Positions 24,321 to 53,518 of a stretch of 64,000 bases of DNA are shown one piece after another. The translations under genes and the position numbers were made by a program. This stretch comes from Escherichia coli. GTDB lineage: Bacteria > Pseudomonadota > Gammaproteobacteria > Enterobacterales > Enterobacteriaceae. Positions within the stretch are counted from its first letter, which is position 1. Each line of letters begins with the position of its first letter. The notes beneath the pieces are model-generated. The model ran no database searches, had not been told where the DNA came from, and worked only from the letters and a program-made list of their open reading frames with translations. Location of the stretch: assembly GCF_003018235.1 (NCBI RefSeq), contig NZ_CP027437.1; one strand, 5' to 3'.

Positions 24321-26222
24321 ATGAAACTACAGAACTCTTTTCGCGACTATACGGCAGAGTCCGCGCTGTTTGTGCGCCGGGCGCTGGTCGCCTTTTTGGG
24401 GATTTTGCTGCTGACCGGCGTGCTTATCGCCAACCTGTATAATCTGCAAATTGTTCGCTTTACCGATTACCAGACCCGCTCTAATGAAAACCGCATTAAG
24501 CTGGTGCCTATCGCACCCAGCCGCGGCATTATCTACGACCGTAACGGTATCCCTCTGGCACTTAACCGCACTATCTACCAGATAGAAATGATGCCGGAGA
24601 AAGTCGATAACGTGCAGCAAACGCTGGACGCTTTGCGCAGCGTGGTTGATCTGACCGATGACGATATTGCTGCATTCCGAAAAGAGCGCGCACGTTCACA
24701 CCGTTTCACCTCCATTCCGGTGAAAACTAACCTGACCGAAGTACAAGTGGCGCGCTTTGCCGTCAATCAGTACCGTTTTCCGGGTGTTGAAGTTAAAGGC
24801 TATAAACGTCGTTACTATCCTTACGGTTCGGCGTTGACCCACGTCATCGGCTATGTGTCGAAAATCAACGATAAAGACGTCGAACGCCTGAATAATGACG
24901 GCAAACTGGCCAACTATGCGGCAACGCATGATATAGGTAAGCTGGGCATTGAGCGTTACTATGAAGACGTGCTGCACGGTCAGACTGGTTATGAAGAGGT
25001 TGAAGTTAACAACCGTGGGCGTGTTATCCGCCAGTTAAAAGAAGTACCACCGCAAGCCGGACACGATATTTACCTGACGCTGGATCTCAAACTCCAGCAA
25101 TATATTGAAACGCTGCTGGCGGGTAGCCGCGCAGCTGTGGTAGTCACCGATCCGCGTACAGGTGGGGTGCTGGCGCTGGTTTCCACGCCTAGTTATGACC
25201 CAAACCTATTTGTTGACGGTATCTCCAGCAAAGATTATTCCGCCTTGCTGAACGACCCGAATACACCGCTGGTGAACCGCGCCACACAGGGGGTTTATCC
25301 TCCCGCGTCTACAGTTAAACCCTATGTGGCGGTTTCGGCATTGAGCGCCGGAGTGATCACGCGCAATACGACGCTGTTTGACCCAGGCTGGTGGCAACTG
25401 CCAGGTTCGGAAAAACGTTATCGTGACTGGAAAAAATGGGGCCACGGGCGTCTGAATGTCACAAGATCGCTGGAAGAATCTGCGGATACCTTCTTCTATC
25501 AGGTGGCCTACGATATGGGAATCGATCGCCTCTCCGAATGGATGGGTAAATTCGGTTATGGTCATTACACCGGTATCGACCTGGCGGAAGAACGTTCCGG
25601 CAACATGCCTACCCGCGAATGGAAACAGAAACGCTTTAAAAAACCGTGGTATCAGGGTGACACCATTCCGGTTGGTATCGGTCAGGGTTACTGGACAGCG
25701 ACCCCAATCCAGATGAGTAAGGCACTGATGATCCTGATTAATGACGGTATCGTGAAGGTTCCGCATTTGTTGATGAGCACCGCCGAAGACGGCAAACAGG
25801 TGCCATGGGTACAACCGCATGAACCGCCCGTCGGCGATATTCATTCCGGTTACTGGGAGCTGGCAAAAGACGGTATGTACGGTGTTGCTAACCGCCCTAA
25901 CGGTACGGCGCATAAATACTTTGCCAGCGCACCGTACAAAATTGCGGCGAAATCTGGTACAGCTCAGGTCTTCGGTCTGAAAGCGAACGAAACCTATAAT
26001 GCGCACAAAATTGCCGAGCGTTTACGTGACCACAAACTGATGACTGCCTTTGCGCCATACAACAATCCGCAAGTGGCTGTCGCCATGATTCTGGAGAACG
26101 GTGGCGCGGGTCCAGCGGTTGGTACGCTGATGCGCCAGATCCTCGACCACATTATGCTGGGTGATAACAACACCGATCTGCCTGCGGAAAATCCAGCGGT
26201 TGCCGCAGCGGAGGACCATTAA
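24321..26222 (+). CDS. mrdA: Penicillin-binding protein 2 (elongasome transpeptidase)
   Basis: 633-aa ORF with transpeptidase motifs STVK and KSGTA. Confidence 0.96.
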
Positions 26223-51629: not shown

Positions 51630-52193
51630 TTAGATTTTACCAACCAGGTCCAGAGACGGAGCCAGAGTTGCTTCACCTTCTTTCCATTTAGCCGGGCAAA
51701 CTTCACCTGGGTGAGAAGCTACGTACTGTGCTGCTTTGATTTTACGCAGCAGGTCAGACGCGTCACGGCCAATGCCTTCAGCGGTAACTTCGATTGCCTG
51801 GATGATACCCTGCGGGTCAACAACGAAGGTCGCACGGTCAGCCAGACCTTCATCTTCACGCATGTTGTCGAAGTTACGGGTCAGGGCGCCAGTCGGGTCG
51901 CCGATCATCGCATATTTGATTTTAGCGATGGTTTCAGAGCTGCTGTGCCATGCTTTGTGGGTGAAGTGAGTATCGGTAGATACTGCGTATACGTCTACGC
52001 CCAGTTTCTGCAGTTCTTCGTAGTGGTCAGCAACGTCACCCAGTTCGGTCGGGCATACGAAAGTAAAGTCAGCCGGGTAGAAGAAGAAGACGCTCCAGCG
52101 GCCTTCGGTATCTTTTTCGGTGATTTCGATGAATTCGCCGTTTTTGAATGCCTGGTTTTTAAAAGGTTTAATTTTGGTGTTAATCAAGGACAT
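51630..52193 (-). CDS. ahpC: Alkyl hydroperoxide reductase subunit C (2-Cys peroxiredoxin)
   Basis: 187-aa ORF with peroxidatic Cys in FTFVCPTEL and resolving Cys near C-terminus. Confidence 0.96.
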
Positions 52194-52494
52194 CTATACT
52201 TCCTCCGTGTTTTCGATGAGATGTAAGGTAACCAATTTTTGCCGATTCGGCTAATGCGTTTCCATTATCAAATCGATAAGTTTTACCTTACAACCTTCGT
52301 AAGACAACTTTGTGAACTTTGCACCGCCAGCGGCGATAAAAAGTAAAATGGCCCCCTTTCCAGGTGACCGTGTAATCTGAACTACCCTTTGGTATCTTCA
52401 GCGCCTGCCTGCAGGCTGAGGTGTTGCCCTTACAAATGCAACAACGACATGGATTACAACACCCTCATAAACAAAGGGCAATCACCTGATCTAA

Positions 52495-52530
52495 GCTCTT
52501 ACCTATGACAGTGATAGGTTATGCCTTTTA
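52495..52530. promoter_or_regulatory. Candidate OxyR-type operator in the ahpC / dsbG divergent region
   Basis: CTAT-N7-ATAG core (ACCTATGACAGTGATAGGTTATG) matches the centre of the OxyR tetrad consensus; exact site not verified. Confidence 0.35.
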
Positions 52531-52564
52531 CCCGACTTTTGCACTGACTGAAAAGGACAAATTA

Positions 52565-53311
52565 ATGTTAAAAAAGATACTTTTACTGGCTCTGCTTCCT
52601 GCAATCGCCTTCGCAGAGGAACTTCCTGATCCAGTAAAAGCGATTGAAAAACAGGGCATTACAATCATCAAAACGTTCGATGCTCCCGGAGGAATGAAAG
52701 GTTATCTCGGCAAGTATCAGGATATGGGCGTCACCATCTACCTGACTCCAGATGGTAAGCACGCTATCTCCGGTTACATGTACAACGAGAAAGGTGAAAA
52801 CCTGAGTAACACACTTATCGAAAAAGAAATTTACGCACCAGCCGGGCGCGAAATGTGGCAACGGATGGAACAATCCCACTGGCTCCTCGACGGTAAAAAA
52901 GACGCGCCGGTCATTGTCTACGTCTTCGCCGATCCGTTCTGCCCATATTGTAAACAGTTCTGGCAGCAGGCTCGCCCGTGGGTTGATTCTGGCAAAGTGC
53001 AATTAAGAACATTGTTGGTTGGCGTTATCAAGCCAGAAAGCCCGGCGACAGCAGCGGCAATTCTTGCCTCCAAAGATCCCGCAAAAACCTGGCAAGAATA
53101 TGAAGCCTCTGGTGGCAAGCTTAAGCTAAACGTGCCTGCAAACGTAAGTACAGAGCAAATGAAAGTGTTAAGCGACAACGAGAAACTGATGGACGATCTG
53201 GGGGCAAATGTCACACCAGCTATCTACTACATGAGTAAGGAAAATACGCTGCAACAGGCCGTGGGGTTGCCCGATCAGAAAACGCTTAATATCATTATGG
53301 GGAATAAATAA
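52565..53311 (+). CDS. dsbG: Periplasmic thiol:disulfide oxidoreductase DsbG
   Basis: 248-aa protein from [17 protein letters not shown] (signal peptide) with CPYC active site. Confidence 0.92.
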
Positions 53312-53518
53312 AAGATAATTCATGGATGGTTGAAATATATCCCTGTTTTTCAACCATCCTAAAAAAGCATGAATTGCTCGCTCTGCCCTAAGTGGCTGTG
53401 CTATTTTAGAAAAACTTAATTCTGAGTTAAGCAAAAAAATATAATACAAATAAATACAACAGCAACATTATTGAACAAATGAATGATTTATAGAAGAGAT
53501 AATATAACGGAGTATGTT

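Follow-up and report, generated by a model that had tools for sequence, protein, structure and literature searches.

Two OxyR sites in the ahpC-dsbG spacer of Escherichia coli and a conserved promoter and STnc70-family RNA candidate beside the distal site

The DNA analyzed here is a stretch of 64,000 nucleotides from Escherichia coli, which is referred to as the window throughout. It contains the divergent ahpC/dsbG locus of the E. coli chromosome. A 1.8-kb stretch around the intergenic spacer is 100% identical to several E. coli chromosomes, and the stretch around the spacer was found in 5422 of the 5426 complete E. coli genomes. The two genes that border the spacer are as follows.

51630-52193, minus strand: ahpC coding sequence, alkyl hydroperoxide reductase subunit C (RefSeq annotation of an identical genome, list of open reading frames)

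52565-53311, plus strand: dsbG coding sequence, periplasmic thiol:disulfide interchange protein / sulfenic acid reductase (RefSeq annotation)

According to the RefSeq annotation of the identical genome, ahpF lies downstream of ahpC on the minus strand; the genes that come after dsbG are citR (ybdO), ybdN and ybdM. The first-pass annotation of this DNA, made from the sequence alone, had described a spacer between divergently transcribed genes, and RefSeq bears out both the arrangement and the extent (52194-52564, 371 bp). Compared with the spacer of K-12 MG1655, the spacer is of equal length and ungapped, and 2 of the 371 bases differ (52402 and 52532), neither of which is located in an OxyR site or in any other described element. 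Since the two spacers are nearly identical, experiments performed in K-12 transfer directly to the window, and published MG1655 coordinates were carried over by means of the ungapped identity.

The first-pass annotation had drawn attention to a CTAT-N7-ATAG element near 52500-52520, and an exact match to this core, CTATGACAGTGATAG, is indeed present at 52503-52517. On its own, the bare pattern of 8 specified bases is weak evidence: it has two matches in 64 kb against 0.38 expected, two or more matches were obtained in 10 of 100 shuffles, and the other match (24571-24585) lies inside an ORF of 633 amino acids. Every position of the window was also scored against the 37-bp consensus for oxidised OxyR, ATAGnTnnnAnCTAT-N7-ATAGnTnnnAnCTAT, which has 20 specified positions and reportedly goes back to Toledano et al. 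in 1994. The single top score among the ~64,000 positions belongs to the following site.

52492-52528, centre 52510, no strand: OxyR site 2 (dsbG-proximal), TAAGCTCTTACCTATGACAGTGATAGGTTATGCCTTT (16/20 consensus positions, conservation, literature)

Among 300 dinucleotide-preserving shuffles of the window, only one reached a score of 16; among 5000 shuffles of the spacer, one did. The central half-sites CTAT and ATAG are perfect and near-invariant across genera. In a tetrad test with 11-bp spacing and dyad symmetry, the outer half-sites showed 2/4 and 3/4 matches in E. coli and were poorly conserved. The palindrome had been proposed to be the centre of an OxyR tetrad, and the motif scan upholds this proposal, as the core is embedded in a full 37-bp site that ranks first in the window, is conserved and has been published.

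Other explanations of the palindrome, namely a chance occurrence, a site of another LysR-type regulator such as CitR/YbdO, or an N-terminally extended DsbG reading frame, appear very improbable to us. The recurrence of the bare pattern in shuffled sequence speaks for chance, but the full 37-bp match is very unlikely to arise in this way and is conserved across genera, and chance was rejected on the shuffle statistics together with this conservation. LysR-family sites share a dyad T-N11-A architecture, which would also suit another member of the family. However, we found no evidence for such a regulator at site 2, and published work, in a passage of PMC6389858, assigns the site to OxyR. Finally, an in-frame ORF of 268 amino acids does begin at an ATG inside the OxyR core (52505), adding 20 residues (52505-52564) to DsbG, but among 59 loci this frame stays open in just 8, all of them Escherichia-like, and an extended DsbG was likewise rejected.

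The shared OxyR region was only partly captured by the first-pass annotation, which located site 2 but missed the classical ahpC site. The elements on this side of the spacer are listed below.

52254-52290, centre 52272, no strand: OxyR site 1 (ahpC-proximal, classical), ATGCGTTTCCATTATCAAATCGATAAGTTTTACCTTA (13/20 consensus positions, conservation, literature)

52217, minus strand: proximal transcription start of ahpC (p1), 24-nt leader (TSS-seq in MG1655, NC_000913.2 638144(+), PMC3415461)

52225-52254, minus strand: putative weak p1 promoter, -35-like TTAGCC (52254-52249), 18-nt spacer, -10-like TACCTT (52230-52225)

Considered alone, the score of site 1 is unexceptional (12 such positions were counted across the window where 6.4 would be expected); two positions scoring at least 13 within the spacer were obtained in 0.7% of shuffles. 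Relative to the start that Kim et al. (2012) mapped by TSS-seq in MG1655, 24 nt upstream of the ahpC ATG (PMC3415461, supplementary file 2), the centre of site 1 is located at -55 and the site spans -37 to -73, abutting the weak -35 element. This placement is the classical geometry of an OxyR activator site. The p1 hexamers are a putative assignment, read from the sequence at the appropriate distance from the mapped start; the promoter region is 84-89% conserved. A promoter reported by a generic scan inside site 1 (TTGTAA-18-GATAAT, minus strand, 52293-52264) was rejected, as such matches are at chance level (1 found, 0.9 expected).

The dsbG-proximal site is already known. In the abstract of their 2001 study (J Bacteriol 183:4571), Zheng and colleagues reportedly described a newly footprinted site with its centre 54 bp ahead of dsbG, at a distance of 238 bp upstream of the ahpC site that was already known. 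OxyR bound to the dsbG-proximal site is said to have induced a second ahpC transcript, and OxyR bound to the ahpC-proximal site is said to have induced both dsbG and ahpC. In the window, 54-55 bp separate the centre of site 2 from the downstream dsbG ATG, and the two site centres are 238 bp apart (52510 - 52272). These distances agree with the reported ones, and we take site 2 to be the dsbG-proximal site of that study. On the MG1655 chromosome, site 2 corresponds to NC_000913.3 638610-638646 and site 1 to 638848-638884. The finding is thus a correct re-discovery of a published element at the same locus as in K-12, of which the window carries a strain variant with nothing of substance different. 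The OxyR element itself, reportedly footprinted in 2001, adds no new biology, and what was found again is a textbook case, in which OxyR controls AhpCF, the main scavenger of peroxide, and DsbG, the periplasmic thiol-repair protein encoded beside it. That a true transcription-factor site was located from raw sequence to within a few bases makes it a useful positive control. What goes beyond the K-12 description is the footprint across genera, together with the connection drawn here between the distal site and three further features, namely a conserved promoter, the STnc70 RNA and a 3' end mapped by Term-seq.

The footprint comes from a DsbG search in which each species was represented by a single genome and which yielded 70 loci. 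In 58 of these, ahpC and dsbG are adjacent and divergent, including loci from Escherichia, Citrobacter, Salmonella, Klebsiella, Raoultella, Kosakonia, Pluralibacter, Yokenella, Trabulsiella, Franconibacter and others. Every one of the 58 adjacent-gene loci has the centre of site 1 at a distance of 78-79 nt from the ahpC ATG, and site 2 lies ~120 nt before the codon of DsbG residue 23 (~54 nt before the ATG) in 57 of them, its core CTATGnnTGTGATAGG being near-invariant. Column conservation, expressed relative to E. coli, is as follows for the two sites and for the end of the spacer.

52254-52290: site 1, 84%

52495-52520: core of site 2, 81%

52529-52564: last 36 bp before dsbG, 47%

The centre-to-centre distance of the two sites ranges from 129 to 307 bp and shows no preference for helical phase among the loci. 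Since the distances vary freely, phase-constrained looping between the sites was rejected. A further short element, TTGTGAAC at 52309-52316 on the plus strand (GTTCACAA on the ahpC strand), is 70-80% conserved across genera and is located between site 1 and the STnc70 terminator described below. Two records in the set carry unexpected names: one titled Chryseobacterium sp. 18061 contains an enterobacterial ahpC-dsbG locus that is near-identical to that of Citrobacter sp. 18056, and a 2.2-kb contig of a 'Lachnospiraceae' MAG contains a dsbG that is 98% E. coli. Both labels probably reflect contamination or mislabelling.

Beside site 2, a conserved promoter was identified that points towards ahpC.

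52453-52481, minus strand: distal promoter p2, towards ahpC, -35 TTGCCC (52481-52476), 17-nt spacer, extended -10 TGtTGTAAT (52461-52453)

52482-52491: stretch between p2 and site 2, 40% conserved

The pattern TTGnnn-17-T[G/C]TAAT is present in 57 of 59 loci, with an invariant TG at -15/-14 and a constant spacer of 17 nt, and the hexamers are 88-91% conserved compared with 54% for the sequence between them. In 57 loci, a distance of 29-30 nt separates the start of the -35 element from the site 2 centre; the consensus of site 2 ends ~10 bp before this element, leaving a larger gap than at p1. Judging from the position of these hexamers, transcription from p2 would start at ~52446, ~253 nt upstream of the ahpC ATG and equivalent to NC_000913.3 ~638692, which would place the centre of site 2 at ~-64, about one helical turn further upstream than the corresponding centre at p1. 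A start at p2 is missing from the list of transcription starts of unstressed MG1655 (PMC3415461), which fits OxyR dependence but does not prove it. A generic promoter and terminator scan missed both p2, because its -10 TGTAAT has no A at position 2, and the STnc70 terminator, because its stem is bulged. Both calls therefore rest on conservation and on published ends.

Downstream of p2, on the ahpC strand, the spacer contains a structured RNA of the STnc70 family, which closes with a hairpin resembling an intrinsic terminator.

52338-52431, minus strand: STnc70-family structured RNA (Rfam RF02069; covariance model, synteny, covariation)

52338-52369, minus strand: intrinsic-terminator-like hairpin GGUCACCUGGAAAGGGGGCC (52369-52350) followed by the U-run AUUUUACUUUUU (52349-52338)

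The E. coli copy is barely above the threshold of the covariance model (44.1 bits, gathering score 40, E = 1e-7). In 13 of the 20 relatives searched, STnc70 was found in the same spacer and on the ahpC strand, with scores of 57-80 bits in Klebsiella, Raoultella, Citrobacter and Kosakonia and of 186 bits in Salmonella. An alignment of 54 copies contains three hairpins with 23 pairs, in which 96.3% of the cells are paired and 9 pairs show compensatory changes. These values were reached by none of 500 shuffles, and slid controls were 31-53% paired. The folding energy of the single E. coli sequence is no better than that of shuffled sequences (z = -0.55); the structure is thus backed by covariation and not by thermodynamics alone. 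The terminator stem also covaries across genera. In most genera, the last hairpin consists of a GC-rich stem and then a U-run, GGCC(G/A)CC...GG(U/C)GGCCUUUUUAC; the E. coli hairpin has CCAUUUUACUUUUU where Klebsiella and Salmonella have GGCCUUUUUAC. The E. coli copy and the Salmonella RNA of Rfam share the spacer, the strand, the hairpins and the terminal stem with its U-run. In contrast to the Salmonella RNA, the E. coli copy has no 59-nt insertion, its first hairpin is shorter by 16 nt, and it has an interrupted U-run; the 16-nt deletion and the interrupted U-run are features of Escherichia STnc70. The insertion of ~59 nt was observed in the second stem-loop in Salmonella enterica subsp. arizonae and diarizonae (loci L017 and L018, ~1704-1852), where it forms an extra hairpin with an inverted repeat of its own relative to all other genera.

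A published transcript end is consistent with termination at this hairpin. Adams et al. (2021) listed an "orphan" 3' end obtained by Term-seq at NC_000913.3 638796(+), 149 nt upstream of ahpC (PMC7815308, supplementary file 3), which corresponds to window position 52342 and falls within the U-run of the STnc70 terminator. It was classified as not Rho-dependent (score 0.27), with an intrinsic-terminator score of 5.17, and goes undiscussed in the main text of that paper (PMC7815308). In Salmonella, STnc70 was listed as a predicted, unprobed sRNA of the dsbG/ahpC spacer on the ahpC strand; its cDNA reads numbered 5 and 7, and its Hfq enrichment was 1.4 (PMC2515195, supplement). The E. coli transcript would accordingly extend from ~52446 to 52342, with a predicted 5' end and a mapped 3' end. 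Literature searches for STnc70 returned matches to STnc700 only, searches for names of the dsbG-ahpC spacer returned none, and no link between STnc70 and OxyR was found in the literature examined.

Loci with a different arrangement bear on the question of which gene site 2 serves. In seven Pectobacterium loci, in which dsbG is located apart from ahpC, the region upstream of dsbG contains no OxyR-like site (best scores 9-11/20, without the exact core). In Enterobacter sp. ENT03, in which the adjacency is kept and the spacer is short, site 2, p2 and STnc70 have been lost together. Both cases fit the idea that site 2, p2 and STnc70 form a module of the ahpC side rather than a dsbG promoter. In another strain, Enterobacter sp. 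kpr-6, site 2 and p2 are kept and most of STnc70, including the terminator, is absent, so that p2 would read straight into ahpC.

The position of the dsbG start is of particular importance for the role of site 2.

52407, plus strand: transcription start of dsbG, 158-nt leader (TSS-seq in MG1655, NC_000913.2 637954(-), PMC3415461, supplementary file 2)

This start, which comes from one data set with 25 reads (PMC3415461), places site 2 within the dsbG leader, at +85 to +121, and not upstream of the dsbG promoter. For dsbG, site 2 is thus no conventional activator site. Nonetheless, the shared core implied by the first-pass annotation would have site 2 directly activate a dsbG promoter within the 36 bp before the dsbG ATG. 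The location of the site 2 centre 54-55 bp upstream of this ATG and the fixed distance in 57 of the 58 adjacent-gene loci are what such a model has in its favour, although a fixed distance is also expected if a short leader has no room to vary. The model is at odds with the mapped start, which lies 158 nt upstream of the ATG and to the left of site 2, with the poor conservation (47%) of 52529-52564, where no promoter-like match is present, with the opposite orientation of the conserved promoter adjoining site 2, and with the lack of the site at Pectobacterium dsbG. We consider direct activation improbable. Next to site 1, inspection by eye did not reveal convincing hexamers of a dsbG promoter, and the reported induction of dsbG from site 1 is not explained by the sequence.

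Co-regulation of both genes by peroxide, as put forward by the first-pass annotation, stands as far as a shared, OxyR-controlled divergent region is concerned: in the passage that cites Zheng et al., PMC6389858 describes two OxyR sites in the ahpC-dsbG spacer that activate ahpC and dsbG. The response of dsbG itself is contested. Transcriptomic data are taken to suggest that oxidised OxyR represses dsbG in one review (PMC8115020), and in one RNA-seq study dsbG was unchanged after sublethal H2O2. Thus, the literature is clear for ahpC, and the regulation of dsbG by peroxide is weak or contested. A second role proposed for site 2 takes up this point, namely that it acts mainly as a repressor or roadblock, OxyR at +85 to +121 and/or head-on transcription from p2 lowering dsbG expression under peroxide. 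Several observations agree with it: the dsbG start puts site 2 within the leader, p2 and the dsbG promoter face each other with transcripts that would overlap over 52407-52446, the review mentioned above suggests repression, and a lowering of dsbG would also fit the lack of a dsbG response in the RNA-seq study. That same lack of response can, however, be held against repression, as can the activation of dsbG given in the passage of PMC6389858 and the small basis of the dsbG start. We regard a mainly repressive role as possible but doubtful; it is compatible with the explanation that we favor.

Taken together, we consider it very likely that the spacer is the known OxyR-controlled ahpC-dsbG region with two tetramer sites, that site 2, p2 and STnc70 act together as proposed in the following, and that dsbG is affected indirectly. 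The motifs, their conservation, that of the promoters and the RNA, and the positions of the published ends were computed here; OxyR binding and OxyR-dependent expression are taken from the literature, and the assignment of outputs to the two sites draws in part on what Zheng et al. reportedly stated in their 2001 abstract. Hydrogen peroxide oxidises OxyR, and the tetramer at site 1 recruits RNA polymerase to p1, whereby ahpCF is induced. At the distal site, OxyR would activate p2, which its position marks as the probable promoter of site 2. Part of the p2 transcripts would stop at the intrinsic terminator of STnc70, at ~52342, giving an RNA of ~105 nt, and the remainder would read through site 1 and p1 into ahpC and would represent the reported OxyR-dependent "second ahpC transcript". 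Termination and read-through would thereby partition the output of p2, and the 16-nt deletion and interrupted U-run of Escherichia may favor read-through into ahpC. The dsbG gene, starting at 52407 between the two sites, would be transcribed head-on through p2 and site 2. For this reason, its response to OxyR would be indirect and of uncertain sign. Site 2 therefore most likely drives the long second ahpC transcript and STnc70 rather than dsbG. That site 2, the conserved promoter p2, the STnc70 candidate and the Term-seq 3' end can be read together as a single transcription unit provides a modest new angle on a known region.

A more far-reaching version, in which the conserved primary output of site 2 is not an mRNA but the discrete terminated sRNA STnc70 (~105 nt in E. 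coli, ~165 nt in Salmonella), is a tentative suggestion that we would not expect to hold. If it were true, STnc70 would be a second OxyR-dependent small RNA beside OxyS, and with its first ~40 nt it would be antisense to the dsbG mRNA at the 5' end of the latter. Induction of STnc70, or head-on transcription, could then modulate dsbG and explain the conflicting reports of activation and repression, and in Escherichia, with its weakened terminator, a larger share of the transcripts would read through into ahpC.

The proposed arrangement invites comparison with the divergent oxyR-oxyS region, where an OxyR site activates the small RNA OxyS and autorepresses oxyR. Both regions have an OxyR tetrad in a divergent spacer, and the likeness may extend further, in that the output on one side of the ahpC-dsbG spacer would be a short, terminator-ended RNA and the effect on the opposite gene is possibly negative. 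However, one site serves both back-to-back promoters at oxyR-oxyS, whereas the ahpC-dsbG spacer has two sites, each with an adjacent promoter that points towards ahpC, and the start of the opposite gene lies between the two sites. Moreover, OxyS is a validated Hfq-dependent regulator, whereas STnc70 is a predicted sRNA.

Further observations concern the region downstream of dsbG. At 53304-53340, where an AT-rich spacer separates the dsbG stop codon from citR/ybdO, the window has its second-highest score against the OxyR consensus (15/20). This match lacks significance, as 26 of 300 shuffled windows reach a score of 15. At 53324-53359, 13 nt past the dsbG stop codon, a perfect 12-bp inverted repeat (GGATGGTTGAAA / TTTCAACCATCC, 12-nt loop) was found, which is probably the terminator hairpin of dsbG. 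This repeat also accounts for a sub-threshold match to the Rfam family 'Plastid-psbM'.
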